Shown here: positions 25,721 through 64,000 of the stretch, in pieces | Numbering within the stretch: position 1 is the stretch's first letter | Layout of the letters: the number at the start of each line of letters is the position of its first letter | DNA from: Mobula hypostoma | Lineage: Eukaryota | DNA: 64,000 bases | Direction: 5' to 3' | Assembly: GCF_963921235.1 (NCBI RefSeq) | Contig: NC_086108.1 | Span: forward strand, 12,524,001 to 12,588,000 | The notes under the pieces: model-generated | Database searches by the model: none | Told to the model about the DNA's origin: nothing | Seen by the model: only the letters and a program-made list of their open reading frames with translations | Program-made: the position numbers and the translations under genes

Positions 25721-26349
25721 TGATACACAATTTCGTAGTACCTGTAGTTCAATTGGTAGTGTTCTATCTTGTTCTGTATTTCATATAAATACATAATTTG
25801 TTACTAAGTTTGTCGTTTTTATCCTCCAAGAAGTGTGGTTTGGAGGTGTTTGTGCCTTAATGACCCAGAGAGCTATGCTGGCTGGAGTCAGGTCTTTATG
25901 CTTTGGCTCTTGGTAGGGTCACTCATGTGAAACAAGCCAAAGGTTAAAAGCCAAACTAAGAGTCGTCCACTAGTCTTCCAGGTTCGGGGGTTGATCTTAG
26001 GGCTAACAACCCTGACAGGTCAAAAAGCAATTGTTATGGAAACAGCAATGCTTCTACACAGACTGAGATAGAGGACATTCTTTGCTGCACTAAACATCAG
26101 CAGCGTAACAGCCAGGTGCCTCATCTTTTTTATACTTTTTCAACTAATTCCAGGAAATTTCAGCTAATAGCGGCAGCCGCTTAATTAGTCCAAGATGTAT
26201 TGGTCTTGATGTGTCCCAGTTGTCCAGAATCCACTGTATATCACAAACAGCAGAGATCCCTGTGCAACACCACTTGTCACAGATCTCCAGCCAGAATAAA
26301 TCCCATCTGAATCCAACCAGCCAAGTTTGGCCGTTTGGAATCCAAATGG

Positions 26350-26635
26350 TCATAGCTGCCATTGGTTAAGGGTGAAAGGTAAAAAGTTTAAGGGGAACAC
26401 GAGGGGAACTTCTTCCCTCGGGGTGGTGAGAGTGTGGAATGAGCTGCCAGTGCAGGTGGTGCAGGCGAGCTCCATTTCAATATTTAAGAGAAGTTTGGAT
26501 AGGTACATGGATGGTAGGGGTATGGAGGGCTGTAGTCCCAGTGCAGGTCAACGGGAGTAGGCAGTTTTAATGGTTTGGTACGGACTAGATGGGCCAAAGG
26601 GCCTGTTTCTGTGCTGTACTTTTCTATGACTCTAT
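26350..26635 (+). mobile_element. CR1 3' end
   Basis: VRVWNELP...FKRSLDRYMD and TTCTATGACTCTATG tail. Confidence 0.75.
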
Positions 26636-26786
26636 GAATGGGTTGGATAGATACTGGCCAGTGGATTTGTCATCGCTTTGAAGGGCACTTTAAACAAATT
26701 CAGGAGGGATTGAGAACCTGAGAAAGATCAAGGGGTGAAATGCAAAATGAGAAATAAATGGTAGAAAGTTTATGGGGGATTGGTAG

Positions 26787-27647
26787 TGTTACGTACCCCG
26801 TAACTGGGTTGCCAAACCAGCAGAAATGGATCACTCAGTTGGAGTCTGGAGTACTAGAACTAAGAAAGTTTTATTAAAGAAACAAGCAACACATTAATCG
26901 AAAGGATAATAAATGCAACAATTCAACAATGATAACCACACATGTGCACAGAATTAAGATAACAGCATCAATCAAGCTCTATCGTTGTCTAGGGGTTAAA
27001 TGACCAATTTCAAAATGACTCAAAGTTCAGTCCAGTTTGTAGTTCAGTTCGCAGTAATCGTTGCCATGGCGGTGGACAACGTGGGGGAAGAGAGACATAG
27101 AATAGGAACAACTCATCATTCAGCACAGCTTCACTCACAGACCAGCGGGATGGCTCACAGACCAGCTTTTGGGCAGGTCCTTGGTGATGTCACCTGAGGT
27201 CACCGACTGTGACCCCTCCTCCAGATGCGGTCGATCCTCTGCAGTGAACCCGGCACCCAGGCAAGGGCGGACACACACCGGGTTCCCGCTGATCGTACCT
27301 TTCCACCCTTGTCGTTGTCTGGGACTTCTCACCCACTCGTGAGAAGCGCACCGCTTCCAGGGTCTCGTTACCTCGGGTGGCGTGTGTGTCTGTCTTAGCG
27401 AACCTGTCCCTTTTTATCCCCCTGCTGGGGTATCGCCTGTCCATCACTTCAAACAGTTCAGGGCTCAAAGGGGGGAGCCGCTCCAGACAGCTCTTCCTCC
27501 CACATCCCTTCATTACACATCTCCAGACGCTGCTCCATTGTTCCTTATCTCTCCTTCCCCTGAGGGCAGGTGGCAGACCAACTGCTGATGCCACTGATGC
27601 TAGCCCAGGCCAGCAAACATCTTAATTTTATGTGTATTCTCGTAACA
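26787..27647 (-). repeat. LTR 1 (861 bp; 3'-most LTR in element orientation)
   Basis: TG...CA ends with 7-bp inverted repeat. Minus-strand AATAAA at 26870-26875. TATA-like GATAAAAA near 27411-27418. Adjacent PPT. Confidence 0.95.
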
Positions 27648-27659
27648 CTTCCCCCCTTT
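27648..27659 (-). promoter_or_regulatory. Polypurine tract
   Basis: Minus strand AAAGGGGGGAAG directly abutting the TG start of the downstream LTR; present in all six units. Confidence 0.9.
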
Positions 27660-27819
27660 AAGGATTTTTACCGGGAGGTAAAAATTACAAACATGACTAC
27701 ATTATCTGATACATACACAATATACATCTTTAACAGTTATTTAGCTAATACAGAGAATTTGAAATTGTCAACACCTTGACAGACAGTCATCACATTTTCT
27801 GTTCCTTTTACACGTGTTA

Positions 27820-30705
27820 TTAATAATCCCTTAGACCAGGCTCCAACTCAGCAAACTTCATAGTGGCCAAAAACACTGATGAATTGCGACCAATGTAACC
27901 TCTCATTTGGTTTTGTCCCGGACCACAACAACAAGGGTCGTCCCATTCCGACTCAATTTTCTCTCGCAAGGGCTTAGTAGGAGGGGGACGGGTATTGACC
28001 GCAGAGTTATTGCAAAACTTCCTGCAGTACCCCACCATCTCCAAGAGCCTTCTGAGGGCCCTCTTGTCTGTCGGGGTTGGGAGGTCAGCGATAGCCTGCA
28101 CTGCAGCTTGCATCACTGCCAGCTGCCCCTGTGTCACCACAATTCCCAGGTAAGTGACTCTCGTGTGGCCGAATTCATTTTTTCCAAGGCTCACTATCAC
28201 GCTGGCTTCAGACAGCCGTGTTAAATTGCCAATACACACCTCTGTGTTCATCAGCCCTTTAGTCACTGAATTACTCAAAAAATATGGGTGTTGTTTGCTT
28301 GGCTGCCCTATTGTAACCGACATAACCCAACGTCCCAGTTCTTTGCATTTCCTCGGGACAATCAAACACATGGGTGCGAGTCGTTTAATTACTCCTTCGG
28401 GGATTAAGGGAGAGACCTTATCAGTAGACCTGGTCAAAACAATAGCCTTCTCCCATCTGACCGATCCCATCCTAATCTTTTCAAAATGGTTTTTTCCTCT
28501 TATCAAGGGGCCCCTAGCTTCATTGATTTCCACGCTAACACCGACTAGGTTCGTTAGCATATCAAAAGCCGGTGACCGTCTCAGTTCGCGTCGGTCATGA
28601 TCAATAACATTCTTCCCCCTGGGCAGCCGGTAAATCTCTTTCATGATTCCACCAACTGTTTCCTCCAGCACCGCAAAATGTCCACCGGGGGGTACCTCGT
28701 GGGCCATGTTAAAAACCTCATCCCCATAACTCTTTTGCACCACCCCCCACTCCTCATCTGCGGATGCTGTACTTGATTTCCCTTTCTTCCTTAGCACTTC
28801 CTCATCCGCACAATAGCCTACTAGTTCCCTTGTCAAGGCTGTGTCAGAGAGAGCTGTCTCGGCCAAAACCATCAGCCCCTCGTCTCGCTCCTGCGTCTGC
28901 ACAAATTCTTTCCTGGCTACTGCTACGTCCGTCCCAGCTCCCTCACTACCTCTTATCTCACTACACCCTGTCTCATACAAGGTTGGCAGAAATGTTTCAG
29001 CCAAATTCACCATCGCGGGCGGGGCCTCCATGCTGGCAGGCTGACCCGTCAATCTCACGACTGGGAACACGATTCCTCCGGCGATGTCATTACCGAGCAA
29101 GACTTCCACGTCTTTCATCGGTAATTCGGACCTCACCCCGATCGTGACTAGTCCAGAGACCAGGTTGCTCTGTAAATGTATCTGGTGCAAAGGGACTGAC
29201 TCTGTCCCTTCCCCAACACCTTTGACCTCTACCTCCCCAGTCTGGGTCTCTGAGCTAAACTCTAATACACTCTTCAGTATTAGTGACTGACACGCTCCCG
29301 TGTCTCTCCAGATCCGCACTGGAACTGGTTTTAACCTCTTTTTCACTGACACCAGTCCGGCCGAGATAAACCTCTCGCGCCCTTCCTGGACTTTTTCAGA
29401 CCTGTCCTTCCCTAGCGGTTCGCTTAACAGCTCAATACAGCCATTCCAAATTTCCGCTTTTCCTTTCCCCGTCTCCTTTCTTGGGGCAAAGCACCTGGAC
29501 GCAAAGTGTTCGACTTTCCCACAATTATAACAGACGACCCCAGGAGACCTCCTACCAGGCTGCTCCCGGTCTACCTTATCCTTTTCACTAGTCCCCGGCT
29601 TACTTTCTGACTTTTCCGGCGGACTCTCCCCGCCGTCCTGACTACCCTTCTGGTAGCCTTTACTCGGGGCAACCTTCATTTTATGCGTCAACGCATACTC
29701 ATCCGCTAACTTAGCAGTTGCGGCTAACGTGGCTGCCTCTTTCTCATCGAGGTAGGGTCTCATACCCTCAGGGACACAACCTTTAAACTGCTCAATCAGA
29801 ATCAGCTGCAGCAGTCTGTCATAATCCCCCTCTACCCCTTTCGAGGCGCACCAACGCTCACAATATGTTTGCATCTCACGAGCAAACTCCAAATACGTGC
29901 GGTCCCACCGCTTCCTCGCATTCCGGAACCTCTGCCGGTATGCCTCCGGGACCAACTCATAAATCCTGAGGATGGCCTCCTTCACCACCTCATACTTCTG
30001 GGCATCTTCCGCGGATAAGGCGGAGTAAGCTTGTTGGGCCTTCCCTTTCAGTACACACTGAAGTAAGACAACCCACTTATCCCTCGGCCATTCCTGACTT
30101 ATAGCTACTTTTTCGAAGTGGAGAAAGTACCGATCCACATCGGTATCGTCAAATGGGGGAACCAGCCTAACCTCCTGGGTCGCCCGGAACCCTCCACCTT
30201 GGTTCGGCACGAGCCCCTGCTCGGCCCTTATCTTTAACTTCTCCAGCTCAAATTCCCTTTCCCTCTGTCTCTCTTCTCTCTCCAACTGTCTGTCCCTCTC
30301 TCTCTCTTCTCTCTCCAACTGTCTTTCTCTCTCTTGCCTTTCTACCTCTTTCTCTCTCTCCCGCCTTTCTAACTCTCTCTCTTTCTCCTGCCTTTCTAAC
30401 TCTCTCTCTTTCTCCTGCCTTTCTAACTTTCGTACCCGGAACTCGTGCTCGAGTCTCAGTTTTTCAAGCTGTACCTGTACCGCGTCTCCAGCAGGTTTTT
30501 CAATAGACACCTCCCCCAGCTCACCTTGGGGAAACACACCTTTAGATACATAGTGCTCTACAATAGCTCTGTGTATCTCCTCTCTCCTCATTGTCGACTT
30601 CACCTTGGCAAGATTCACCCGTTTGGCCACAGCTATCAATTCCGATTTCCTGGCATCCTCTAATGCCTCCAAGGTCGGCGCCTTTATAAATTCCTCAACC
30701 TCCAT
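27820..30705 (-). CDS. Gag-protease polyprotein with vestigial IN/RT tail, unit 1 (961 aa; G-to-E change in CCHC knuckle)
   Basis: E/R coiled coil; capsid/SCAN-like PEAYRQRFR...LEQF-like...LADEY; CYNCGKVEHFASRC; protease RDTGA and LLGND; HEVPPGGH integrase-Zn remnant; KQHPY and YLGIVV...MVGYCRKF RT remnant. Confidence 0.9.
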   Translation of the reverse strand: MEVEEFIKAPTLEALEDARKSELIAVAKRVNLAKVKSTMRREEIHRAIVEHYVSKGVFPQGELGEVSIEKPAGDAVQVQLEKLRLEHEFRVRKLERQEKERELERQEKERELERREREKEVERQERERQLEREERERDRQLEREERQREREFELEKLKIRAEQGLVPNQGGGFRATQEVRLVPPFDDTDVDRYFLHFEKVAISQEWPRDKWVVLLQCVLKGKAQQAYSALSAEDAQKYEVVKEAILRIYELVPEAYRQRFRNARKRWDRTYLEFAREMQTYCERWCASKGVEGDYDRLLQLILIEQFKGCVPEGMRPYLDEKEAATLAATAKLADEYALTHKMKVAPSKGYQKGSQDGGESPPEKSESKPGTSEKDKVDREQPGRRSPGVVCYNCGKVEHFASRCFAPRKETGKGKAEIWNGCIELLSEPLGKDRSEKVQEGRERFISAGLVSVKKRLKPVPVRIWRDTGACQSLILKSVLEFSSETQTGEVEVKGVGEGTESVPLHQIHLQSNLVSGLVTIGVRSELPMKDVEVLLGNDIAGGIVFPVVRLTGQPASMEAPPAMVNLAETFLPTLYETGCSEIRGSEGAGTDVAVARKEFVQTQERDEGLMVLAETALSDTALTRELVGYCADEEVLRKKGKSSTASADEEWGVVQKSYGDEVFNMAHEVPPGGHFAVLEETVGGIMKEIYRLPRGKNVIDHDRRELRRSPAFDMLTNLVGVSVEINEARGPLIRGKNHFEKIRMGSVRWEKAIVLTRSTDKVSPLIPEGVIKRLAPMCLIVPRKCKELGRWVMSVTIGQPSKQHPYFLSNSVTKGLMNTEVCIGNLTRLSEASVIVSLGKNEFGHTRVTYLGIVVTQGQLAVMQAAVQAIADLPTPTDKRALRRLLEMVGYCRKFCNNSAVNTRPPPTKPLREKIESEWDDPCCCGPGQNQMRGYIGRNSSVFLATMKFAELEPGLRDY

Positions 30706-30781
30706 TTCTGCTGTTTGTCTTTTCTTTCTTTCGGGAATTTTAACCCAATCAATTTACTCCGTCCCAAATTTAGCGTTCAAA

Positions 30782-30799
30782 ATCCCGGACGAGCCCCCA
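30782..30799 (-). promoter_or_regulatory. Primer-binding site complementary to tRNA-Pro
   Basis: Minus strand TGGGGGCTCGTCCGGGAT is the 18-nt tRNA-Pro PBS (as used by MLV), 4 nt inside the LTR. Repeated at 34799-34816, 38816-38835 (2-nt insertion), 42862-42879, 46879-46896 and 50900-50917. Confidence 0.93.
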
Positions 30800-30803
30800 C
30801 TTA

Positions 30804-31664
30804 TGTTACGTACCCCGTAACTGGGTTGCCAAACCAGCAGAAATGGATCACTCAGTTGGAGTCTGGAGTACTAGAACTAAGAAAGTTTTATTAAAGAAAC
30901 AAGCAACACATTAATCGAAAGGATAATAAATGCAACAATTCAACAATGATAACCACACATGTGCACAGAATTAAGATAACAGCATCAATCAAGCTCTATC
31001 GTTGTCTAGGGGTTAAATGACCAATTTCAAAATGACTCAAAGTTCAGTCCAGTTTGTAGTTCAGTTCGCAGTAATCGTTGCCATGGCGGTGGACAACGTG
31101 GGGGAAGAGAGACATAGAATAGGAACAACTCATCATTCAGCACAGCTTCACTCACAGACCAGCGGGATGGCTCACAGACCAGCTTTTGGGCAGGTCCTTG
31201 GTGATGTCACCTGAGGTCACCGACTGTGACCCCTCCTCCAGATGCGGTCGATCCTCTGCAGTGAACCCGGCACCCAGGCAAGGGCGGACACACACCGGGT
31301 TCCCGCTGATCGTACCTTTCCACCCTTGTCGTTGTCTGGGACTTCTCACCCACTCGTGAGAAGCGCACCGCTTCCAGGGTCTCGTTACCTCGGGTGGCGT
31401 GTGTGTCTGTCTTAGCGAACCTGTCCCTTTTTATCCCCCTGCTGGGGTATCGCCTGTCCATCACTTCAAACAGTTCAGGGCTCAAAGGGGGGAGCCGCTC
31501 CAGACAGCTCTTCCTCCCACATCCCTTCATTACACATCTCCAGACGCTGCTCCATTGTTCCTTATCTCTCCTTCCCCTGAGGGCAGGTGGCAGACCAACT
31601 GCTGATGCCACTGATGCTAGCCCAGGCCAGCAAACATCTTAATTTTATGTGTATTCTCGTAACA
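30804..31664 (-). repeat. LTR 2 (shared between units)
   Basis: Same sequence as LTR 1; PBS on one side and PPT on the other. Confidence 0.95.
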
Positions 31665-31836
31665 CTTCCCCCCTTTAAGGATTTTTACCGGGAGGTAAAA
31701 ATTACAAACATGACTACATTATCTGATACATACACAATATACATCTTTAACAGTTATTTAGCTAATACAGAGAATTTGAAATTGTCAACACCTTGACAGA
31801 CAGTCATCACATTTTCTGTTCCTTTTACACGTGTTA

Positions 31837-34722
31837 TTAATAATCCCTTAGACCAGGCTCCAACTCAGCAAACTTCATAGTGGCCAAAAACACTGATGAA
31901 TTGCGACCAATGTAACCTCTCATTTGGTTTTGTCCCGGACCACAACAACAAGGGTCGTCCCATTCCGACTCAATTTTCTCTCGCAAGGGCTTAGTAGGAG
32001 GGGGACGGGTATTGACCGCAGAGTTATTGCAAAACTTCCTGCAGTACCCCACCATCTCCAAGAGCCTTCTGAGGGCCCTCTTGTCTGTCGGGGTTGGGAG
32101 GTCAGCGATAGCCTGCACTGCAGCTTGCATCACTGCCAGCTGCCCCTGTGTCACCACAATTCCCAGGTAAGTGACTCTCGTGTGGCCGAATTCATTTTTT
32201 CCAAGGCTCACTATCACGCTGGCTTCAGACAGCCGTGTTAAATTGCCAATACACACCTCTGTGTTCATCAGCCCTTTAGTCACTGAATTACTCAAAAAAT
32301 ATGGGTGTTGTTTGCTTGGCTGCCCTATTGTAACCGACATAACCCAACGTCCCAGTTCTTTGCATTTCCTCGGGACAATCAAACACATGGGTGCGAGTCG
32401 TTTAATTACTCCTTCGGGGATTAAGGGAGAGACCTTATCAGTAGACCTGGTCAAAACAATAGCCTTCTCCCATCTGACCGATCCCATCCTAATCTTTTCA
32501 AAATGGTTTTTTCCTCTTATCAAGGGGCCCCTAGCTTCATTGATTTCCACGCTAACACCGACTAGGTTCGTTAGCATATCAAAAGCCGGTGACCGTCTCA
32601 GTTCGCGTCGGTCATGATCAATAACATTCTTCCCCCTGGGCAGCCGGTAAATCTCTTTCATGATTCCACCAACTGTTTCCTCCAGCACCGCAAAATGTCC
32701 ACCGGGGGGTACCTCGTGGGCCATGTTAAAAACCTCATCCCCATAACTCTTTTGCACCACCCCCCACTCCTCATCTGCGGATGCTGTACTTGATTTCCCT
32801 TTCTTCCTTAGCACTTCCTCATCCGCACAATAGCCTACTAGTTCCCTTGTCAAGGCTGTGTCAGAGAGAGCTGTCTCGGCCAAAACCATCAGCCCCTCGT
32901 CTCGCTCCTGCGTCTGCACAAATTCTTTCCTGGCTACTGCTACGTCCGTCCCAGCTCCCTCACTACCTCTTATCTCACTACACCCTGTCTCATACAAGGT
33001 TGGCAGAAATGTTTCAGCCAAATTCACCATCGCGGGCGGGGCCTCCATGCTGGCAGGCTGACCCGTCAATCTCACGACTGGGAACACGATTCCTCCGGCG
33101 ATGTCATTACCGAGCAAGACTTCCACGTCTTTCATCGGTAATTCGGACCTCACCCCGATCGTGACTAGTCCAGAGACCAGGTTGCTCTGTAAATGTATCT
33201 GGTGCAAAGGGACTGACTCTGTCCCTTCCCCAACACCTTTGACCTCTACCTCCCCAGTCTGGGTCTCTGAGCTAAACTCTAATACACTCTTCAGTATTAG
33301 TGACTGACACGCTCCCGTGTCTCTCCAGATCCGCACTGGAACTGGTTTTAACCTCTTTTTCACTGACACCAGTCCGGCCGAGATAAACCTCTCGCGCCCT
33401 TCCTGGACTTTTTCAGACCTGTCCTTCCCTAGCGGTTCGCTTAACAGCTCAATACAGCCATTCCAAATTTCCGCTTTTCCTTTCCCCGTCTCCTTTCTTG
33501 GGGCAAAGCACCTGGACGCAAAGTGTCCGACTTTCCCACAATTATAACAGACGACCCCAGGAGACCTCCTACCAGGCTGCTCCCGGTCTACCTTATCCTT
33601 TTCACTAGTCCCCGGCTTACTTTCTGACTTTTCCGGCGGACTCTCCCCGCCGTCCTGACTACCCTTCTGGTAGCCTTTACTCGGGGCAACCTTCATTTTA
33701 TGCGTCAACGCATACTCATCCGCTAACTTAGCAGTTGCGGCTAACGTGGCTGCCTCTTTCTCATCGAGGTAGGGTCTCATACCCTCAGGGACACAACCTT
33801 TAAACTGCTCAATCAGAATCAGCTGCAGCAGTCTGTCATAATCCCCCTCTACCCCTTTCGAGGCGCACCAACGCTCACAATATGTTTGCATCTCACGAGC
33901 AAACTCCAAATACGTGCGGTCCCACCGCTTCCTCGCATTCCGGAACCTCTGCCGGTATGCCTCCGGGACCAACTCATAAATCCTGAGGATGGCCTCCTTC
34001 ACCACCTCATACTTCTGGGCATCTTCCGCGGATAAGGCGGAGTAAGCTTGTTGGGCCTTCCCTTTCAGTACACACTGAAGTAAGACAACCCACTTATCCC
34101 TCGGCCATTCCTGACTTATAGCTACTTTTTCGAAGTGGAGAAAGTACCGATCCACATCGGTATCGTCAAATGGGGGAACCAGCCTAACCTCCTGGGTCGC
34201 CCGGAACCCTCCACCTTGGTTCGGCACGAGCCCCTGCTCGGCCCTTATCTTTAACTTCTCCAGCTCAAATTCCCTTTCCCTCTGTCTCTCTTCTCTCTCC
34301 AACTGTCTGTCCCTCTCTCTCTCTTCTCTCTCCAACTGTCTTTCTCTCTCTTGCCTTTCTACCTCTTTCTCTCTCTCCCGCCTTTCTAACTCTCTCTCTT
34401 TCTCCTGCCTTTCTAACTCTCTCTCTTTCTCCTGCCTTTCTAACTTTCGTACCCGGAACTCGTGCTCGAGTCTCAGTTTTTCAAGCTGTACCTGTACCGC
34501 GTCTCCAGCAGGTTTTTCAATAGACACCTCCCCCAGCTCACCTTGGGGAAACACACCTTTAGATACATAGTGCTCTACAATAGCTCTGTGTATCTCCTCT
34601 CTCCTCATTGTCGACTTCACCTTGGCAAGATTCACCCGTTTGGCCACAGCTATCAATTCCGATTTCCTGGCATCCTCTAATGCCTCCAAGGTCGGCGCCT
34701 TTATAAATTCCTCAACCTCCAT
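31837..34722 (-). CDS. Gag-protease polyprotein with vestigial IN/RT tail, unit 2 (961 aa, consensus)
   Basis: Same ORF with canonical CYNCGKVGHFASRC knuckle. Confidence 0.9.
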   Translation of the reverse strand: MEVEEFIKAPTLEALEDARKSELIAVAKRVNLAKVKSTMRREEIHRAIVEHYVSKGVFPQGELGEVSIEKPAGDAVQVQLEKLRLEHEFRVRKLERQEKERELERQEKERELERREREKEVERQERERQLEREERERDRQLEREERQREREFELEKLKIRAEQGLVPNQGGGFRATQEVRLVPPFDDTDVDRYFLHFEKVAISQEWPRDKWVVLLQCVLKGKAQQAYSALSAEDAQKYEVVKEAILRIYELVPEAYRQRFRNARKRWDRTYLEFAREMQTYCERWCASKGVEGDYDRLLQLILIEQFKGCVPEGMRPYLDEKEAATLAATAKLADEYALTHKMKVAPSKGYQKGSQDGGESPPEKSESKPGTSEKDKVDREQPGRRSPGVVCYNCGKVGHFASRCFAPRKETGKGKAEIWNGCIELLSEPLGKDRSEKVQEGRERFISAGLVSVKKRLKPVPVRIWRDTGACQSLILKSVLEFSSETQTGEVEVKGVGEGTESVPLHQIHLQSNLVSGLVTIGVRSELPMKDVEVLLGNDIAGGIVFPVVRLTGQPASMEAPPAMVNLAETFLPTLYETGCSEIRGSEGAGTDVAVARKEFVQTQERDEGLMVLAETALSDTALTRELVGYCADEEVLRKKGKSSTASADEEWGVVQKSYGDEVFNMAHEVPPGGHFAVLEETVGGIMKEIYRLPRGKNVIDHDRRELRRSPAFDMLTNLVGVSVEINEARGPLIRGKNHFEKIRMGSVRWEKAIVLTRSTDKVSPLIPEGVIKRLAPMCLIVPRKCKELGRWVMSVTIGQPSKQHPYFLSNSVTKGLMNTEVCIGNLTRLSEASVIVSLGKNEFGHTRVTYLGIVVTQGQLAVMQAAVQAIADLPTPTDKRALRRLLEMVGYCRKFCNNSAVNTRPPPTKPLREKIESEWDDPCCCGPGQNQMRGYIGRNSSVFLATMKFAELEPGLRDY

Positions 34723-34820
34723 TTCTGCTGTTTGTCTTTTCTTTCTTTCGGGAATTTTAACCCAATCAATTTACTCCGTCCCAAATTTAGCGTTCAAAAT
34801 CCCGGACGAGCCCCCACTTA

Positions 34821-35681
34821 TGTTACGTACCCCGTAACTGGGTTGCCAAACCAGCAGAAATGGATCACTCAGTTGGAGTCTGGAGTACTAGAACTAAGAA
34901 AGTTTTATTAAAGAAACAAGCAACACATTAATCGAAAGGATAATAAATGCAACAATTCAACAATGATAACCACACATGTGCACAGAATTAAGATAACAGC
35001 ATCAATCAAGCTCTATCGTTGTCTAGGGGTTAAATGACCAATTTCAAAATGACTCAAAGTTCAGTCCAGTTTGTAGTTCAGTTCGCAGTAATCGTTGCCA
35101 TGGCGGTGGACAACGTGGGGGAAGAGAGACATAGAATAGGAACAACTCATCATTCAGCACAGCTTCACTCACAGACCAGCGGGATGGCTCACAGACCAGC
35201 TTTTGGGCAGGTCCTTGGTGATGTCACCTGAGGTCACCGACTGTGACCCCTCCTCCAGATGCGGTCGATCCTCTGCAGTGAACCCGGCACCCAGGCAAGG
35301 GCGGACACACACCGGGTTCCCGCTGATCGTACCTTTCCACCCTTGTCGTTGTCTGGGACTTCTCACCCACTCGTGAGAAGCGCACCGCTTCCAGGGTCTC
35401 GTTACCTCGGGTGGCGTGTGTGTCTGTCTTAGCGAACCTGTCCCTTTTTATCCCCCTGCTGGGGTATCGCCTGTCCATCACTTCAAACAGTTCAGGGCTC
35501 AAAGGGGGGAGCCGCTCCAGACAGCTCTTCCTCCCACATCCCTTCATTACACATCTCCAGACGCTGCTCCATTGTTCCTTATCTCTCCTTCCCCTGAGGG
35601 CAGGTGGCAGACCAACTGCTGATGCCACTGATGCTAGCCCAGGCCAGCAAACATCTTAATTTTATGTGTATTCTCGTAACA
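34821..35681 (-). repeat. LTR 3 (shared)
   Basis: Same sequence as LTR 1; identical ORF-track peptides. Confidence 0.95.
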
Positions 35682-35853
35682 CTTCCCCCCTTTAAGGATT
35701 TTTACCGGGAGGTAAAAATTACAAACATGACTACATTATCTGATACATACACAATATACATCTTTAACAGTTATTTAGCTAATACAGAGAATTTGAAATT
35801 GTCAACACCTTGACAGACAGTCATCACATTTTCTGTTCCTTTTACACGTGTTA

Positions 35854-38739: not shown

Positions 38740-38839
38740 TTCTGCTGTTTGTCTTTTCTTTCTTTCGGGAATTTTAACCCAATCAATTTACTCCGTCCCA
38801 AATTTAGCGTTCAAAATCCCGGACATGAGCCCCCACTTA

Positions 38840-39700
38840 TGTTACGTACCCCGTAACTGGGTTGCCAAACCAGCAGAAATGGATCACTCAGTTGGAGTCT
38901 GGAGTACTAGAACTAAGAAAGTTTTATTAAAGAAACAAGCAACACATTAATCGAAAGGATAATAAATGCAACAATTCAACAATGATAACCACACATGTGC
39001 ACAGAATTAAGATAACAGCATCAATCAAGCTCTATCGTTGTCTAGGGGTTAAATGACCAATTTCAAAATGACTCAAAGTTCAGTCCAGTTTGTAGTTCAG
39101 TTCGCAGTAATCGTTGCCATGGCGGTGGACAACGTGGGGGAAGAGAGACATAGAATAGGAACAACTCATCATTCAGCACAGCTTCACTCACAGACCAGCG
39201 GGATGGCTCACAGACCAGCTTTTGGGCAGGTCCTTGGTGATGTCACCTGAGGTCACCGACTGTGACCCCTCCTCCAGATGCGGTCGATCCTCTGCAGTGA
39301 ACCCGGCACCCAGGCAAGGGCGGACACACACCGGGTTCCCGCTGATCGTACCTTTCCACCCTTGTCGTTGTCTGGGACTTCTCACCCACTCGTGAGAAGC
39401 GCACCGCTTCCAGGGTCTCGTTACCTCGGGTGGCGTGTGTGTCTGTCTTAGCGAACCTGTCCCTTTTTATCCCCCTGCTGGGGTATCGCCTGTCCATCAC
39501 TTCAAACAGTTCAGGGCTCAAAGGGGGGAGCCGCTCCAGACAGCTCTTCCTCCCACATCCCTTCATTACACATCTCCAGACGCTGCTCCATTGTTCCTTA
39601 TCTCTCCTTCCCCTGAGGGCAGGTGGCAGACCAACTGCTGATGCCACTGATGCTAGCCCAGGCCAGCAAACATCTTAATTTTATGTGTATTCTCGTAACA
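38840..39700 (-). repeat. LTR 4 (shared)
   Basis: Same sequence as LTR 1. Confidence 0.95.
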
Positions 39701-39872
39701 CTTCCCCCCTTTAAGGATTTTTACCGGGAGGTAAAAATTACAAACATGACTACATTATCTGATACATACACAATATACATCTTTAACAGTTATTTAGCTA
39801 ATACAGAGAATTTGAAATTGTCAACACCTTGACAGACAGTCATCACATTTTCTGTTCCTTTTACACGTGTTA

Positions 39873-42785: not shown

Positions 42786-42883
42786 TTCTGCTGTTTGTCT
42801 TTTCTTTCTTTCGGGAATTTTAACCCAATCAATTTACTCCGTCCCAAATTTAGCGTTCAAAATCCCGGACGAGCCCCCACTTA

Positions 42884-43744
42884 TGTTACGTACCCCGTAA
42901 CTGGGTTGCCAAACCAGCAGAAATGGATCACTCAGTTGGAGTCTGGAGTACTAGAACTAAGAAAGTTTTATTAAAGAAACAAGCAACACATTAATCGAAA
43001 GGATAATAAATGCAACAATTCAACAATGATAACCACACATGTGCACAGAATTAAGATAACAGCATCAATCAAGCTCTATCGTTGTCTAGGGGTTAAATGA
43101 CCAATTTCAAAATGACTCAAAGTTCAGTCCAGTTTGTAGTTCAGTTCGCAGTAATCGTTGCCATGGCGGTGGACAACGTGGGGGAAGAGAGACATAGAAT
43201 AGGAACAACTCATCATTCAGCACAGCTTCACTCACAGACCAGCGGGATGGCTCACAGACCAGCTTTTGGGCAGGTCCTTGGTGATGTCACCTGAGGTCAC
43301 CGACTGTGACCCCTCCTCCAGATGCGGTCGATCCTCTGCAGTGAACCCGGCACCCAGGCAAGGGCGGACACACACCGGGTTCCCGCTGATCGTACCTTTC
43401 CACCCTTGTCGTTGTCTGGGACTTCTCACCCACTCGTGAGAAGCGCACCGCTTCCAGGGTCTCGTTACCTCGGGTGGCGTGTGTGTCTGTCTTAGCGAAC
43501 CTGTCCCTTTTTATCCCCCTGCTGGGGTATCGCCTGTCCATCACTTCAAACAGTTCAGGGCTCAAAGGGGGGAGCCGCTCCAGACAGCTCTTCCTCCCAC
43601 ATCCCTTCATTACACATCTCCAGACGCTGCTCCATTGTTCCTTATCTCTCCTTCCCCTGAGGGCAGGTGGCAGACCAACTGCTGATGCCACTGATGCTAG
43701 CCCAGGCCAGCAAACATCTTAATTTTATGTGTATTCTCGTAACA
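42884..43744 (-). repeat. LTR 5 (shared)
   Basis: Same sequence as LTR 1. Confidence 0.95.
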
Positions 43745-43916
43745 CTTCCCCCCTTTAAGGATTTTTACCGGGAGGTAAAAATTACAAACATGACTACATT
43801 ATCTGATACATACACAATATACATCTTTAACAGTTATTTAGCTAATACAGAGAATTTGAAATTGTCAACACCTTGACAGACAGTCATCACATTTTCTGTT
43901 CCTTTTACACGTGTTA

Positions 43917-46802
43917 TTAATAATCCCTTAGACCAGGCTCCAACTCAGCAAACTTCATAGTGGCCAAAAACACTGATGAATTGCGACCAATGTAACCTCT
44001 CATTTGGTTTTGTCCCGGACCACAACAACAAGGGTCGTCCCATTCCGACTCAATTTTCTCTCGCAAGGGCTTAGTAGGAGGGGGACGGGTATTGACCGCA
44101 GAGTTATTGCAAAACTTCCTGCAGTACCCCACCATCTCCAAGAGCCTTCTGAGGGCCCTCTTGTCTGTCGGGGTTGGGAGGTCAGCGATAGCCTGCACTG
44201 CAGCTTGCATCACTGCCAGCTGCCCCTGTGTCACCACAATTCCCAGGTATGTGACTCTCGTGTGGCCGAATTCATTTTTTCCAAGGCTCACTATCACGCT
44301 GGCTTCAGACAGCCGTGTTAAATTGCCAATACACACCTCTGTGTTCATCAGCCCTTTAGTCACTGAATTACTCAAAAAATATGGGTGTTGTTTGCTTGGC
44401 TGCCCTATTGTAACCGACATAACCCAACGTCCCAGTTCTTTGCATTTCCTCGGGACAATCAAACACATGGGTGCGAGTCGTTTAATTACTCCTTCGGGGA
44501 TTAAGGGAGAGACCTTATCAGTAGACCTGGTCAAAACAATAGCCTTCTCCCATCTGACCGATCCCATCCTAATCTTTTCAAAATGGTTTTTTCCTCTTAT
44601 CAAGGGGCCCCTAGCTTCATTGATTTCCACGCTAACACCGACTAGGTTCGTTAGCATATCAAAAGCCGGTGACCGTCTCAGTTCGCGTCGGTCATGATCA
44701 ATAACATTCTTCCCCCTGGGCAGCCGGTAAATCTCTTTCATGATTCCACCAACTGTTTCCTCCAGCACCGCAAAATGTCCACCGGGGGGTACCTCGTGGG
44801 CCATGTTAAAAACCTCATCCCCATAACTCTTTTGCACCACCCCCCACTCCTCATCTGCGGATGCTGTACTTGATTTCCCTTTCTTCCTTAGCACTTCCTC
44901 ATCCGCACAATAGCCTACTAGTTCCCTTGTCAAGGCTGTGTCAGAGAGAGCTGTCTCGGCCAAAACCATCAGCCCCTCGTCTCGCTCCTGCGTCTGCACA
45001 AATTCTTTCCTGGCTACTGCTACATCCGTCCCAGCTCCCTCACTACCTCTTATCTCACTACACCCTGTCTCATACAAGGTTGGCAGAAATGTTTCAGCCA
45101 AATTCACCATCGCGGGCGGGGCCTCCATGCTGGCAGGCTGACCCGTCAATCTCACGACTGGGAACACTATTCCTCCGGCGATGTCATTACCGAGCAAGAC
45201 TTCCACGTCTTTCATCGGTAATTCGGACCTCACCCCGATCGTGACTAGTCCAGAGACCAGGTTGCTCTGTAAATGTATCTGGTGCAAAGGGACTGACTCT
45301 GTCCCTTCCCCAACACCTTTGACCTCTACCTCCCCAGTCTGGGTCTCTGAGCTAAACTCTAATACACTCTTCAGTATTAGTGACTGACACGCTCCCGTGT
45401 CTCTCCAGATCCGCACTGGAACTGGTTTTAACCTCTTTTTCACTGACACCAGTCCGGCCGAGATAAACCTCTCGCGCCCTTCCTGGACTTTTTCAGACCT
45501 GTCCTTCCCTAGCGGTTCGCTTAACAGCTCAATACAGCCATTCCAAATTTCCGCTTTTCCTTTCCCCGTCTCCTTTCTTGGGGCAAAGCACCTGGACGCA
45601 AAGTGTCCGACTTTCCCACAATTATAACAGACGACCCCAGGAGACCTCCTACCAGGCTGCTCCCGGTCTACCTTATCCTTTTCACTAGTCCCCGGCTTAC
45701 TTTCTGACTTTTCCGGCGGACTCTCCCCGCCGTCCTGACTACCCTTCTGGTAGCCTTTACTCGGGGCAACCTTCATTTTATGCGTCAACGCATACTCATC
45801 CGCTAACTTAGCAGTTGCGGCTAACGTGGCTGCCTCTTTCTCATCGAGGTAGGGTCTCATACCCTCAGGGACACAACCTTTAAACTGCTCAATCAGAATC
45901 AGCTGCAGCAGTCTGTCATAATCCCCCTCTACCCCTTTCGAGGCGCACCAACGCTCACAATATGTTTGCATCTCACGAGCAAACTCCAAATACGTGCGGT
46001 CCCACCGCTTCCTCGCATTCCGGAACCTCTGCCGGTATGCCTCCGGGACCAACTCATAAATCCTGAGGATGGCCTCCTTCACCACCTCATACTTCTGGGC
46101 ATCTTCCGCGGATAAGGCGGAGTAAGCTTGTTGGGCCTTCCCTTTCAGTACACACTGAAGTAAGACAACCCACTTATCCCTCGGCCATTCCTGACTTATA
46201 GCTACTTTTTCGAAGTGGAGAAAGTACCGATCCACATCGGTATCGTCAAATGGGGGAACCAGCCTAACCTCCTGGGTCGCCCGGAACCCTCCACCTTGGT
46301 TCGGCACGAGCCCCTGCTCGGCCCTTATCTTTAACTTCTCCAGCTCAAATTCCCTTTCCCTCTGTCTCTCTTCTCTCTCCAACTGTCTGTCCCTCTCTCT
46401 CTCTTCTCTCTCCAACTGTCTTTCTCTCTCTTGCCTTTCTACCTCTTTCTCTCTCTCCCGCCTTTCTAACTCTCTCTCTTTCTCCTGCCTTTCTAACTCT
46501 CTCTCTTTCTCCTGCCTTTCTAACTTTCGTACCCGGAACTCGTGCTCGAGTCTCAGTTTTTCAAGCTGTACCTGTACCGCGTCTCCAGCAGGTTTTTCAA
46601 TAGACACCTCCCCCAGCTCACCTTGGGGAAACACACCTTTAGATACATAGTGCTCTACAATAGCTCTGTGTATCTCCTCTCTCCTCATTGTCGACTTCAC
46701 CTTGGCAAGATTCACCCGTTTGGCCACAGCTATCAATTCCGATTTCCTGGCATCCTCTAATGCCTCCAAGGTCGGCGCCTTTATAAATTCCTCAACCTCC
46801 AT
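43917..46802 (-). CDS. Gag-protease polyprotein with vestigial IN/RT tail, unit 5 (961 aa)
   Basis: Same protein as unit 2 despite three nucleotide substitutions (44250, 45024, 45168). Confidence 0.9.
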   Translation of the reverse strand: MEVEEFIKAPTLEALEDARKSELIAVAKRVNLAKVKSTMRREEIHRAIVEHYVSKGVFPQGELGEVSIEKPAGDAVQVQLEKLRLEHEFRVRKLERQEKERELERQEKERELERREREKEVERQERERQLEREERERDRQLEREERQREREFELEKLKIRAEQGLVPNQGGGFRATQEVRLVPPFDDTDVDRYFLHFEKVAISQEWPRDKWVVLLQCVLKGKAQQAYSALSAEDAQKYEVVKEAILRIYELVPEAYRQRFRNARKRWDRTYLEFAREMQTYCERWCASKGVEGDYDRLLQLILIEQFKGCVPEGMRPYLDEKEAATLAATAKLADEYALTHKMKVAPSKGYQKGSQDGGESPPEKSESKPGTSEKDKVDREQPGRRSPGVVCYNCGKVGHFASRCFAPRKETGKGKAEIWNGCIELLSEPLGKDRSEKVQEGRERFISAGLVSVKKRLKPVPVRIWRDTGACQSLILKSVLEFSSETQTGEVEVKGVGEGTESVPLHQIHLQSNLVSGLVTIGVRSELPMKDVEVLLGNDIAGGIVFPVVRLTGQPASMEAPPAMVNLAETFLPTLYETGCSEIRGSEGAGTDVAVARKEFVQTQERDEGLMVLAETALSDTALTRELVGYCADEEVLRKKGKSSTASADEEWGVVQKSYGDEVFNMAHEVPPGGHFAVLEETVGGIMKEIYRLPRGKNVIDHDRRELRRSPAFDMLTNLVGVSVEINEARGPLIRGKNHFEKIRMGSVRWEKAIVLTRSTDKVSPLIPEGVIKRLAPMCLIVPRKCKELGRWVMSVTIGQPSKQHPYFLSNSVTKGLMNTEVCIGNLTRLSEASVIVSLGKNEFGHTRVTYLGIVVTQGQLAVMQAAVQAIADLPTPTDKRALRRLLEMVGYCRKFCNNSAVNTRPPPTKPLREKIESEWDDPCCCGPGQNQMRGYIGRNSSVFLATMKFAELEPGLRDY

Positions 46803-46900
46803 TTCTGCTGTTTGTCTTTTCTTTCTTTCGGGAATTTTAACCCAATCAATTTACTCCGTCCCAAATTTAGCGTTCAAAATCCCGGACGAGCCCCCACTTA

Positions 46901-47761
46901 TGTTACGTACCCCGTAACTGGGTTGCCAAACCAGCAGAAATGGATCACTCAGTTGGAGTCTGGAGTACTAGAACTAAGAAAGTTTTATTAAAGAAACAAG
47001 CAACACATTAATCGAAAGGATAATAAATGCAACAATTCAACAATGATAACCACACATGTGCACAGAATTAAGATAACAGCATCAATCAAGCTCTATCGTT
47101 GTCTAGGGGTTAAATGACCAATTTCAAAATGACTCAAAGTTCAGTCCAGTTTGTAGTTCAGTTCGCAGTAATCGTTGCCATGGCGGTGGACAACGTGGGG
47201 GAAGAGAGACATAGAATAGGAACAACTCATCATTCAGCACAGCTTCACTCACAGACCAGCGGGATGGCTCACAGACCAGCTTTTGGGCAGGTCCTTGGTG
47301 ATGTCACCTGAGGTCACCGACTGTGACCCCTCCTCCAGATGCGGTCGATCCTCTGCAGTGAACCCGGCACCCAGGCAAGGGCGGACACACACCGGGTTCC
47401 CGCTGATCGTACCTTTCCACCCTTGTCGTTGTCTGGGACTTCTCACCCACTCGTGAGAAGCGCACCGCTTCCAGGGTCTCGTTACCTCGGGTGGCGTGTG
47501 TGTCTGTCTTAGCGAACCTGTCCCTTTTTATCCCCCTGCTGGGGTATCGCCTGTCCATCACTTCAAACAGTTCAGGGCTCAAAGGGGGGAGCCGCTCCAG
47601 ACAGCTCTTCCTCCCACATCCCTTCATTACACATCTCCAGACGCTGCTCCATTGTTCCTTATCTCTCCTTCCCCTGAGGGCAGGTGGCAGACCAACTGCT
47701 GATGCCACTGATGCTAGCCCAGGCCAGCAAACATCTTAATTTTATGTGTATTCTCGTAACA
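46901..47761 (-). repeat. LTR 6 (shared)
   Basis: Same sequence as LTR 1. Confidence 0.95.
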
Positions 47762-47933
47762 CTTCCCCCCTTTAAGGATTTTTACCGGGAGGTAAAAATT
47801 ACAAACATGACTACATTATCTGATACATACACAATATACATCTTTAACAGTTATTTAGCTAATACAGAGAATTTGAAATTGTCAACACCTTGACAGACAG
47901 TCATCACATTTTCTGTTCCTTTTACACGTGTTA

Positions 47934-50823
47934 TTAATAATCCCTTAGACCAGGCTCCAACTCAGCAAACTTCATAGTGGCCAAAAACACTGATGAATTG
48001 CGACCAATGTAACCTCTCATTTGGTTTTGTCCCGGACCACAACAACAAGGGTCGTCCCATTCCGACTCAATTTTCTCTCGCAAGGGCTTAGTAGGAGGGG
48101 GACGGGTATTGACCGCAGAGTTATTGCAAAACTTCCTGCAGTACCCCACCATCTCCAAGAGCCTTCTGAGGGCCCTCTTGTCTGTCGGGGTTGGGAGGTC
48201 AGCGATAGCCTGCACTGCAGCTTGCATCACTGCCAGCTGCCCCTGTGTCACCACAATTCCCAGGTAAGTGACTCTCGTGTGGCCGAATTCATTTTTTCCA
48301 AGGCTCACTATCACGCTGGCTTCAGACAGCCGTGTTAAATTGCCAATACACACCTCTGTGTTCATCAGCCCTTTAGTCACTGAATTACTCAAAAAATATG
48401 GGTGTTGTTTGCTTGGCTGCCCTATTGTAACCGACATAACCCAACGTCCCAGTTCTTTGCATTTCCTCGGGACAATCAAACACATGGGTGCGAGTCGTTT
48501 AATTACTCCTTCGGGGATTAAGGGAGAGACCTTATCAGTAGACCTGGTCAAAACAATAGCCTTCTCCCATCTGACCGATCCCATCCTAATCTTTTCAAAA
48601 TGGTTTTTTCCTCTTATCAAGGGGCCCCTAGCTTCATTGATTTCCACGCTAACACCGACTAGGTTCGTTAGCATATCAAAAGCCGGTGACCGTCTCAGTT
48701 CGCGTCGGTCATGATCAATAACATTCTTCCCCCTGGGCAGCCGGTAAATCTCTTTCATGATTCCACCAACTGTTTCCTCCAGCACCGCAAAATGTCCACC
48801 GGGGGGTACCTCGTGGGCCATGTTAAAAACCTCATCCCCATAACTCTTTTGCACCACCCCCCACTCCTCATCTGCGGATGCTGTACTTGATTTCCCTTTC
48901 TTCCTTAGCACTTCCTCATCCGCACAATAGCCTACTAGTTCCCTTGTCAAGGCTGTGTCAGAGAGAGCTGTCTCGGCCAAAACCATCAGCCCCTCGTCTC
49001 GCTCCTGCGTCTGCACAAATTCTTTCCTGGCTACTGCTACGTCCGTCCCAGCTCCCTCACTACCTCTTATCTCACTACACCCTGTCTCATACAAGGTTGG
49101 CAGAAATGTTTCAGCCAAATTCACCATCGCGGGCGGGGCCTCCATGCTGGCAGGCTGACCCGTCAATCTCACGACTGGGAACACGATTCCTCCGGCGATG
49201 TCATTACCGAGCAAGACTTCCACGTCTTTCATCGGTAATTCGGACCTCACCCCGATCGTGACTAGTCCAGAGACCAGGTTGCTCTGTAAATGTATCTGGT
49301 GCAAAGGGACTGACTCTGTCCCTTCCCCAACACCTTTGACCTCTACCTCCCCAGTCTGGGTCTCTGAGCTAAACTCTAATACACTCTTCAGTATTAGTGA
49401 CTGACACGCTCCCGTGTCTCTCCAGATCCGCACTGGAACTGGTTTTAACCTCTTTTTCACTGACACCAGTCCGGCCGAGATAAACCTCTCGCGCCCTTCC
49501 TGGACTTTTTCAGACCTGTCCTTCCCTAGCGGTTCGCTTAACAGCTCAATACAGCCATTCCAAATTTCCGCTTTTCCTTTCCCCGTCTCCTTTCTTGGGG
49601 CAAAGCACCTGGACGCAAAGTGTCCGACTTTCCCACAATTATAACAGACGACCCCAGGAGACCTCCTACCAGGCTGCTCCCGGTCTACCTTATCCTTTTC
49701 ACTAGTCCCCGGCTTACTTTCTGACTTTTCCGGCGGACTCTCCCCGCCGTCCTGACTACCCTTCTGGTAGCCTTTACTCGGGGCAACCTTCATTTTATGC
49801 GTCAACGCATACTCATCCGCTAACTTAGCAGTTGCGGCTAACGTGGCTGCCTCTTTCTCATCGAGGTAGGGTCTCATACCCTCAGGGACACAACCTTTAA
49901 ACTGCTCAATCAGAATCAGCTGCAGCAGTCTGTCATAATCCCCCTCTACCCCTTTCGAGGCGCACCAACGCTCACAATATGTTTGCATCTCACGAGCAAA
50001 CTCCAAATACGTGCGGTCCCACCGCTTCCTCGCATTCCGGAACCTCTGCCGGTATGCCTCCGGGACCAACTCATAAATCCTGAGGATGGCCTCCTTCACC
50101 ACCTCATACTTCTGGGCATCTTCCGCGGATAAGGCGGAGTAAGCTTGTTGGGCCTTCCCTTTCAGTACACACTGAAGTAAGACAACCCACTTATCCCTCG
50201 GCCATTCCTGACTTATAGCTACTTTTTCGAAGTGGAGAAAGTACCGATCCACATCGGTATCGTCAAATGGGGGAACCAGCCTAACCTCCTGGGTCGCCCG
50301 GAACCCTCCACCTTGGTTCGGCACGAGCCCCTGCTCGGCCCTTATCTTTAACTTCTCCAGCTCAAATTCCCTTTCCCTCTGTCTCTCTTCTCTCTCCAAC
50401 TGTCTGTCCCTCTCTCTCTCTCTCTTCTCTCTCCAACTGTCTTTCTCTCTCTTGCCTTTCTACCTCTTTCTCTCTCTCCCGCCTTTCTAACTCTCTCTCT
50501 TTCTCCTGCCTTTCTAACTCTCTCTCTTTCTCCTGCCTTTCTAACTTTCGTACCCGGAACTCGTGCTCGAGTCTCAGTTTTTCAAGCTGTACCTGTACCG
50601 CGTCTCCAGCAGGTTTTTCAATAGACACCTCCCCCAGCTCACCTTGGGGAAACACACCTTTAGATACATAGTGCTCTACAATAGCTCTGTGTATCTCCTC
50701 TCTCCTCATTGTCGACTTCACCTTGGCAAGATTCACCCGTTTGGCCACAGCTATCAATTCCGATTTCCTGGCATCCTCTAATGCCTCCAAGGTCGGCGCC
50801 TTTATAAATTCCTCAACCTCCAT
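47934..50823 (-). pseudogene. Gag-protease polyprotein, unit 6, frameshifted
   Basis: An extra (TC)2 in the TC run at ~50410-50424 splits the ORF into 50362-50823 and 47934-50399; could be a consensus error. Confidence 0.8.
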
Positions 50824-50921
50824 TTCTGCTGTTTGTCTTTTCTTTCTTTCGGGAATTTTAACCCAATCAATTTACTCCGTCCCAAATTTAGCGTTCAAAA
50901 TCCCGGACGAGCCCCCACTTA

Positions 50922-51782
50922 TGTTACGTACCCCGTAACTGGGTTGCCAAACCAGCAGAAATGGATCACTCAGTTGGAGTCTGGAGTACTAGAACTAAGA
51001 AAGTTTTATTAAAGAAACAAGCAACACATTAATCGAAAGGATAATAAATGCAACAATTCAACAATGATAACCACACATGTGCACAGAATTAAGATAACAG
51101 CATCAATCAAGCTCTATCGTTGTCTAGGGGTTAAATGACCAATTTCAAAATGACTCAAAGTTCAGTCCAGTTTGTAGTTCAGTTCGCAGTAATCGTTGCC
51201 ATGGCGGTGGACAACGTGGGGGAAGAGAGACATAGAATAGGAACAACTCATCATTCAGCACAGCTTCACTCACAGACCAGCGGGATGGCTCACAGACCAG
51301 CTTTTGGGCAGGTCCTTGGTGATGTCACCTGAGGTCACCGACTGTGACCCCTCCTCCAGATGCGGTCGATCCTCTGCAGTGAACCCGGCACCCAGGCAAG
51401 GGCGGACACACACCGGGTTCCCGCTGATCGTACCTTTCCACCCTTGTCGTTGTCTGGGACTTCTCACCCACTCGTGAGAAGCGCACCGCTTCCAGGGTCT
51501 CGTTACCTCGGGTGGCGTGTGTGTCTGTCTTAGCGAACCTGTCCCTTTTTATCCCCCTGCTGGGGTATCGCCTGTCCATCACTTCAAACAGTTCAGGGCT
51601 CAAAGGGGGGAGCCGCTCCAGACAGCTCTTCCTCCCACATCCCTTCATTACACATCTCCAGACGCTGCTCCATTGTTCCTTATCTCTCCTTCCCCTGAGG
51701 GCAGGTGGCAGACCAACTGCTGATGCCACTGATGCTAGCCCAGGCCAGCAAACATCTTAATTTTATGTGTATTCTCGTAACA
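50922..51782 (-). repeat. LTR 7 (5'-most LTR in element orientation)
   Basis: Same sequence as LTR 1; followed by TSD GTAG and non-element flank instead of a PPT. Confidence 0.95.
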
Positions 51783-52112
51783 GTAGGCAGACAAATCTTG
51801 GAAGATTGCCATAAAAGAGTCTGTGCTTGTTGATGTGTGCCAAGTGATCTGAGAGTGGTGAGTAAAGCAGTTGCATTGAGATAGACATATGGAAATATGA
51901 CATTTTAAATAAAAATGAGTATGTCTTAAGTAAGGGCAAGAGTGGCAGCTTAGCATTCATGGTTCCAGCGATAAGAGTGCATGATAGGAAAGAAGGGAGA
52001 TGGGGAGCAGAATTGGGTGTGAGATTCAATGATAGTTTAAGTCAAGACAAGTCAAGTTAAGTTTATTGTCATTTAATTATATACATGTTGTGTTGAAGTT
52101 GTATCAGACATC

Positions 52113-63822: not shown

Positions 63823-64000
63823 TGACTGCCCATGGAGATTTCACAGTGACTGTCCACACAGATCTCATAGTGACTGCCCATGGAGATCTCATGGTGACTG
63901 TCCACACAGATCTCACAGTGACTGTCCACACGGATCTCACAGTGACTGCCCATGGAGATCTCACAGTGACTGTCCATGGAGATCTCACAGTGACTGTCCA
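63823..64000. repeat. 24-bp tandem repeat, right block (runs off the window)
   Basis: Same unit variants as 60060-60476. Confidence 0.95.

Follow-up and report, generated by a model that had tools for sequence, protein, structure and literature searches.

How does a retrotransposon come to stand six times in a row at one chromosomal site, with each copy sharing its long terminal repeat (LTR) with the next? We address this question at a locus of Mobula hypostoma, using a stretch of 64,000 nucleotides (nt) (assembly GCF_963921235.1, contig NC_086108.1, positions 12,524,001 to 12,588,000; hereafter the window, whose own numbering is used throughout) that contains such an array, built from what appears to be a non-autonomous Gmr1-like Ty3/gypsy element. 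A survey of plant genomes describes the formation of shared-LTR tandems as open, unequal exchange being set against the capture or integration of complementary DNA (cDNA) or circles (PMC11899658). The Mobula array is a clean test case, since it combines six units, five of them individually marked, with a single target-site duplication (TSD), membership of a high-copy family and a site that appears to be empty in a relative. We favour, with modest confidence, a history of one insertion followed by growth in place through unequal homologous exchange between misaligned LTRs or whole units.

Self-comparison of the window revealed an array with a period of 4,017 base pairs (bp) from 26787 to 51782. 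Exact mapping, in this one assembly, resolved it into seven LTRs and six internal regions in alternation, with an LTR at both ends and a total length of 24,996 bp, which is the structure that an earlier reading made from the letters alone (the sequence-only reading) had proposed. Each LTR is 861 bp long, and all seven are identical, as they had seemed to be on first inspection. On the minus strand, along which the element is oriented, the array's outer 3' LTR (LTR 1) is at 26787–27647, the shared LTRs 2 to 6 are at 30804–31664, 34821–35681, 38840–39700, 42884–43744 and 46901–47761, and the outer 5' LTR (LTR 7) is at 50922–51782. Between them lie the internal regions of units 1 to 6, at 27648–30803 (3,156 bp), 31665–34820 (3,156 bp), 35682–38839 (3,158 bp), 39701–42883 (3,183 bp), 43745–46900 (3,156 bp) and 47762–50921 (3,160 bp). 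At all five internal LTRs the neighbouring sequence is the element's own polypurine tract (PPT) or primer-binding site (PBS), with neither host DNA nor a TSD, in agreement with the sequence-only reading. The single TSD, GTAG, stands directly outside both array ends (26783–26786 and 51783–51786). GTAG had been said to occur only there; this is true of LTR boundaries, but as an ordinary 4-mer it is also present within units.

Several origins can be set aside on this architecture. Repeated independent insertion at one site, which had already been rejected, is ruled out by the absence of internal TSDs and paired LTRs, recombination between two separate insertions by the matching outer TSDs, and segmental duplication by a unit that contains no host DNA. 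The repeat unit itself, one LTR plus one internal region, does not discriminate among the other candidates, because it is expected alike from unequal LTR exchange, from a captured cDNA or 1-LTR circle and from a rolling-circle product. The sequence-only reading had noted its equality with a 1-LTR circle, but LTR–LTR unequal exchange produces the identical unit.

As a monomer the element measures 4,878 bp. It carries a long open frame, which, like the orientation, had been absent from the sequence-only reading: 977 codons in units 1, 2, 3 and 5 (27820–30753 in unit 1, counted from stop to stop, with 961 amino acids from the first ATG; 31837–34770 in unit 2) and 986 in unit 4, while a break near 50410, in the simple repeats of gag, interrupts the frame of unit 6. 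The predicted protein begins with Gag, comprising a SCAN-type capsid (amino acids 269–358; PF02023, E = 1.4e-12) and a zinc knuckle (407–421, also matched in Pfam), and continues with a protease, an integrase relic and a reverse transcriptase (RT) relic. The Pfam models rve, RVT_1 and RNase H gave no match in the unit's protein at E values up to 1. Alignment to P0014, a complete relative from sawfish, covers capsid and protease and reaches into the zinc finger of the integrase (amino acids up to 708 against 561–617 of P0014), then crosses a large gap that includes the region of the RT catalytic motif, and resumes at the RT end (826–941 against 1143–1275). The element has TG...CA ends, and LTR 1 shows the terminal inverted repeat and an AATAAA at LTR position 773. 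A PPT adjoins the 3' LTR (27648–27659 in unit 1, identical in all six units), and an 18-nt PBS, presumably of the tRNA-Pro type, lies 4 nt past the 5' LTR (30782–30799 in unit 1). This 18-mer has exact matches in 24 viral contigs, many of which have the size of a retrovirus and carry the match close to their start.

Gmr1-like elements are defined by SCAN together with the order protease–integrase–RT (bioRxiv 2025.03.03.638093), and a fused gag-pol frame is described as typical of them (PMC11117352). The unit likewise has a SCAN-type capsid, integrase upstream of RT and a single gag-pol frame between LTRs with PBS and PPT, while differing from the elements so described in that the integrase core, the RT catalytic region and RNase H are absent or beyond recognition. 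Judged by domains and their order, the RT here being a short relic, the unit is best classed as a non-autonomous Gmr1-like Ty3/gypsy derivative that has kept Gag and protease alongside relics of integrase and RT, and it would have to borrow RT and integrase from elsewhere. An autonomous LTR retrotransposon is excluded, given that the catalytic domains (integrase core, RT and RNase H) are lacking. Nor is the element a terminal-repeat retrotransposon in miniature (TRIM), a class that is small and non-coding, as its monomer is 4,878 bp long with a 977-codon frame.

Fifteen pairwise alignments of the six units yielded seven variants in 24,963 bp, comprising four single-nucleotide variants (SNVs) and three insertions. 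Each is private to one unit, as had been claimed from the letters alone. Unit 1 has one SNV at 29510, non-synonymous at amino acid 415 in the zinc knuckle, where the family majority has the allele of units 2–6, and unit 2 has no private variant. Unit 3 contains a 2-bp insertion in the middle of its PBS (38825–38826), which splits a CpG and is no simple duplication of adjacent bases, and unit 4 has gained one 27-bp unit of a gag minisatellite near 42416, in frame. Unit 5 holds three SNVs (44250, 45024 and 45168), all synonymous, and unit 6 a 4-bp insertion at about 50410. Two of the three insertions fall in simple repeats. The absence of variants from the LTRs is not significant (P = 0.14–0.33). 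CpG sites had been described as intact, which holds broadly, the observed/expected ratio being 0.54 in the LTR and 0.70 in the internal region versus 0.27 and 0.35 in the flanks; it does not hold for two of the four SNVs, both in unit 5, which hit a CpG. The coding minisatellite in gag, made of 27-bp and 33-bp repeats (30260–30428 and its equivalents), encodes a charged stretch rich in E and R whose length differs both among units and among relatives.

The element belongs to a family with copies on many chromosomes. Of 511 homologues, the top seven are Mobula hypostoma proteins with 78–96% identity, and both homologue clusters that we examined (12 members) consist entirely of Mobula sequences; a scan of metagenomes with the unit's protein returned 47 pattern matches and no confirmed relative. 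Many Mobula copies (P0002, P0003, P0123, P0126, P0129 and P0131) retain an open frame of ~940–1000 amino acids, and several copies of the family are annotated as isoforms of host genes. The dead integrase/RT relic of ~400 amino acids is about as conserved between copies (94–99%) as Gag and protease, which may reflect recent amplification or a constraint to keep the frame open.

To place the units within this family, we used contigs from 4 of 23 listed sequencing runs, compared over window positions 23000–30803 (the left flank and unit 1). A single sample of the organism contains the stretch. In run X1 a total of 155,439 contigs matched (flank repeats included), most of them 90–99% alike, and summed contig depth over the element was 2e5–1e6 against 18–20 in unique flank bins, a figure that is not a copy number but indicates a very abundant and diverse family. 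Against this background all six units share minority alleles at 28552, 29549, 28104, 29559 and 30607, where the other letter makes up 97–100% of the summed X1 depth; the allele comparison covers 40 of 326 substitution rows and 12 of 26 indel rows, none of which contains a private variant of units 3–6, and its depths derive from incomplete counting and from contigs that drop rare variants. None of 11–15 related proteins has any of three residues that the units all share. Because the alleles common to the units are missing from nearly all other contigs of the family, the unit sequences point to one copy, or near twins, as the source of all six, and this counts against capture of random cDNAs of the family.

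A more restricted form of capture bears closer scrutiny. Here, linear cDNAs or 1-LTR circles from the same young sub-lineage would recombine successively into the resident LTR or primer site by integrase-independent single-strand annealing, every capture contributing one LTR–internal unit that had been reverse-transcribed separately. Experiments with Tf1 in fission yeast have demonstrated such a route, in which single-LTR tandems arise through primer-site homology (PMC11042837). In addition, replication of HMS-Beagle and IAP is reported to yield predominantly 1-LTR circles, with alternative end joining (alt-EJ) proposed to circularize cDNA at the primer site (bioRxiv 2022.09.25.509424). An element with no integrase of its own suits this scheme, and so do private variants in each unit, which serial capture predicts. 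Yet in a family this diverse, the same rare alleles recur in all six units and all seven LTRs, so that all five captures would need a source at this locus or in a near twin. Unit 5, which has three of the four SNVs, keeps the array's rare alleles between its SNVs (the equivalent of 28552 and amino acid 774), and any donor of unit 5 must therefore have been a near twin as well. The tandems described from yeast, moreover, are mostly dimers.

When did the insertion occur? In organism B, a relative whose unique flank pieces differ by ~1.5% (28 of 1,809 letters, run X5), one contig each from X5 and X6 aligns to exactly 26786, the last base of the left GTAG, and then continues with 290 and 240 letters, respectively, that are unlike the LTR. 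The first repeat of the right flank begins 257 bp past the array, where a contig of organism B would break. We infer that these contigs represent the empty site, with the LTR absent at exactly this point, and in combination with the one TSD they uphold the view that a single integration took place. The best-matching run, X1, possibly the source of the window itself, agrees with the unique flank at every letter, and in it a 198-bp contig (26611–26808) passes unbroken from flank into LTR at a depth of 15.4, similar to neighbouring unique contigs (14.3–17.6); it has 22 letters in the LTR, below our 31-letter rule for bridging, and run X2 lists no such piece. No empty allele was seen in X1 at 26786, where a fork in the graph would be expected (with the same 22 LTR letters in the junction contig), suggesting that the LTR is probably on both homologues or that the site is hemizygous.

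The lack of an empty allele in X1 argues against a brand-new event. If the SNVs arose in place, their density (4 in 24,963 bp, or 1.6e-4) amounts to ~2% of the divergence from organism B, counted per lineage. The rate of 7e-10 per base per generation reported for the epaulette shark (PMC10587355) translates this into ~2.3e5 generations (Poisson range 6e4–6e5), a rough age given that the rate comes from another species and that methylated repeats mutate faster. The insertion is thus young but probably not brand new, and the 'very recent' integration of the sequence-only reading is not supported in that form.

These contigs also bear on whether six units exist. A shorter tandem, or two haplotypes, could have been expanded to six units during assembly, with some private variants being consensus errors. 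The comparison relied on contigs, none of which spans the array, and two of the insertions lie in simple repeats. At 28552 the residual depth of the array allele was 10.4 in X1 and 0 in X2, below what six copies predict. Residuals at 29549 and 28104 are higher, however, and contigs drop rare variants while counting is incomplete; the three values are so inconsistent (10, 148 and 482 in X1; 0, 20 and 353 in X2) that we did not use them to count units. Five of the six units are individually marked, and the longest gap without a marker, 9,315 bp, is within reach of long reads. Two haplotypes would produce two versions of the unit, not six, and the variants look biological, including SNVs at third codon positions and an exact in-frame gain of 27 bp at a repeat that also varies among relatives. 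We regard an assembly effect as quite improbable.

Under the history we favour, a helper integrase would have inserted a two-LTR monomer, after which crossing over of the 5' LTR of one chromatid with the 3' LTR of a second would have left a shared-LTR dimer on one side and a solo LTR as the reciprocal product. In the dimer, the homology available for misalignment would rise from 0.86 kb to several kb. Three events would suffice (1–2–4–6), so six units could be reached fast and a near star-like pattern left behind. The seven private variants would then be later point mutations and repeat slippage, although consensus errors may account for some of them and unit 5 may derive from a slightly diverged allele or a sibling copy. 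In simulated six-tip trees, the probability that all variants are private was 0.18, 0.13 and 0.07 for 4, 5 and 7 events on a Yule tree and 0.09, 0.06 and 0.025 on a Kingman tree. Slow continuous turnover is thus mildly disfavoured, stepwise growth is compatible with the star pattern, and the pattern is weak evidence for a burst. The earlier argument that it fits a burst better than stepwise duplication survives only in this weak form (P = 0.03–0.18 for stepwise growth), as HERV-K arrays that are put down to unequal recombination show at least the same uniformity. Among the three routes that had been listed at the outset, unequal LTR–LTR exchange now ranks first, with a concatemer and circle recombination retained at lower probability.

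Several observations weigh against growth by unequal exchange. No derived variant shared between units marks any duplication step among the six (15 pairwise alignments), an outcome that continuous turnover would give with a probability of about 0.025 (Kingman, 7 events). Three of the four SNVs fall in unit 5 (P about 0.10), on a stretch of 919 bp, and each of them is a synonymous change at a third codon position (P = 0.011–0.028 depending on the mutation model, assessed post hoc), a cluster for which random mutation in place accounts poorly. The 2-bp insertion in unit 3 lies where cDNA ends join in the capture and circle models; as one event in an 18-nt target it is suggestive, chance or a consensus error being possible. 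Both features are left unexplained by unequal exchange. In rice, Morales-Diaz et al. report that they could not separate unequal exchange from insertion of a ready-made tandem (PMC11899658).

Serial capture would account for both, the synonymous SNVs of unit 5 through a sibling template and the PBS insertion of unit 3 as a scar. The SNVs do resemble what a conversion tract or a sibling template would leave, but exchange with an allele that had diverged slightly could explain them too. On account of these two features we keep serial capture in consideration, as an unlikely explanation.

A different possibility is that the array was a concatemer at insertion, that is, a 25-kb multi-unit DNA integrated in one step by a helper integrase. 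A 1-LTR intermediate copied by strand displacement (rolling circle) could have supplied this DNA, as could read-through RNA from another array once reverse-transcribed. Such an origin fits the single TSD, the flawless outer ends, the identity of the LTRs and the private nature of every variant; multi-unit read-through transcripts have been reported for Cassandra TRIM arrays (PMC7215508), and the route has been raised as possible for plant tandems (PMC11899658). Against it, a particle or complex would have to handle 25 kb, an unusually large substrate of five times the unit, and a read-through source presupposes an older array. Errors of RT should be mostly non-synonymous, whereas three of the four SNVs are synonymous and clustered in one unit. 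The concatemer explains neither these SNVs nor the PBS insertion of unit 3, and the array has no feature beyond the reach of unequal exchange. The terms 'rolling' and 'concatemer' are absent from the available text of the preprint on alt-EJ circles (bioRxiv 2022.09.25.509424), and that of PMC13332604 contains no passage on rolling circles or concatemers. We consider one-step integration of a concatemer very unlikely. Taken together, the two routes would make the array a germ-line fossil of stacked DNA intermediates, whether cDNAs or 1-LTR circles of an integrase-less element captured serially or a multi-unit cDNA integrated whole, and this broader proposition we hold to be doubtful rather than far-fetched.

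What follows for biology depends on the answer. If unequal exchange is correct, the array counts as a structural variant of the ordinary kind, at an early stage on the way from transposon to macrosatellite. If intermediates were stacked, the integrase-independent pathway of yeast would also operate in a vertebrate, where one locus would preserve six events that can be told apart. Every unit would then be the record of a reverse transcription of its own, that of unit 5 from a sibling template, and unit 3 would bear a repair scar at the primer site.

The rest of the window consists largely of other repeats. Among 113 open reading frames in the flanks, Pfam searches recognized no host gene, with LINE domains and weak matches as the only hits (small exons would be missed). 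An ALKBH8_N match (E = 1.6e-7) at 14880–15356 belongs to a model that we take to mark often the C-terminal end of fish LINE (long interspersed nuclear element) proteins and not a host gene. Two LINE-type elements, at 52590–54521 and 60789–63744, have long open RT frames of 643 and 611 codons, and the second is preceded by an endonuclease frame and a weak GDSL/esterase match. A 24-bp minisatellite lies on both sides of the LINE at ~60.5–63.8 kb (59098–60477, 57 copies; 63823–64000, seven or more copies up to the window edge), suggesting that this LINE inserted into the minisatellite. An inverted pair of about 510 bp (2235–2746 and 54240–54744), 96% identical, probably represents two young copies of a LINE 3' end. 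The window further contains a C-rich complex minisatellite of 1.7 kb (17286–19010) and eight copies of a 47-bp tandem repeat (6135–6510).

The arrangement is already published for plants, flies, yeast and human endogenous retroviruses, and all three candidate mechanisms have been proposed before. Among the 20 of 269 matching papers listed, titles and the opening parts of abstracts revealed no report of a Gmr1-like shared-LTR array in cartilaginous fish, which is a weak negative. The closest parallel is HERV-K(HML-2), for which shared-LTR arrays of up to six copies are described at 13 human loci in 292 donors; copies 2–6 of the six-copy array are identical, three four-copy arrays are internally identical, and monomers and multimers segregate at the same loci, for which the authors invoke unequal recombination (PMC13648407). 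These data imply that uniform six-unit arrays exist at loci with segregating single copies, and six is also the largest copy number that we found reported for a full-size vertebrate element. The HERV-K arrays (for example, 7p22.1 and 1p31.1b) resemble the Mobula array in their vertebrate germ-line setting, single shared LTRs, up to six copies and near-identical or identical units (PMC13648407, PMC11807958), and in the six-copy array, too, one unit is more diverged than the others. They differ in being retroviruses with copy-number alleles in populations, whereas here an env-less Ty3/gypsy element is seen in one assembly; their odd unit is terminal, whereas unit 5 is internal and its differences are all synonymous.

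In plants, shared-LTR tandems with one TSD are described as common, with 266 in a rice pangenome. They have in common with the present array the alternation of LTR and internal regions, terminal LTRs, one outer TSD and an interpretation as a single insertion, as well as an enrichment of gypsy elements and a debate over the same two mechanisms. The two loci presented in detail, however, are dimers with 85–99% LTR identity, in contrast to six units with identical LTRs in an animal (PMC11899658). For Drosophila, McGurk and Barbash set out an unequal-recombination mechanism for shared-LTR tandems (bioRxiv 158386). The integrase-independent, Rad52-dependent tandems of Tf1/Tf2 (Li et al. 2022, PMC11042837) share separation by a single LTR, homology at the primer site and a lack of integrase, but they are experimental products in yeast, mostly dimers and often hybrids of two templates, whereas no unit here is a proven hybrid. 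Arrays of the Cassandra TRIM (Kalendar et al. 2020, PMC7215508) are likewise non-autonomous, with an LTR–internal unit repeated in at least 12 nearly identical copies, but that unit is short and non-coding, in contrast to the 4-kb unit with a 961-amino-acid open frame described here. To these systems the Mobula locus adds an individually marked six-unit array, formed by an apparently Gmr1-like element in a cartilaginous fish.

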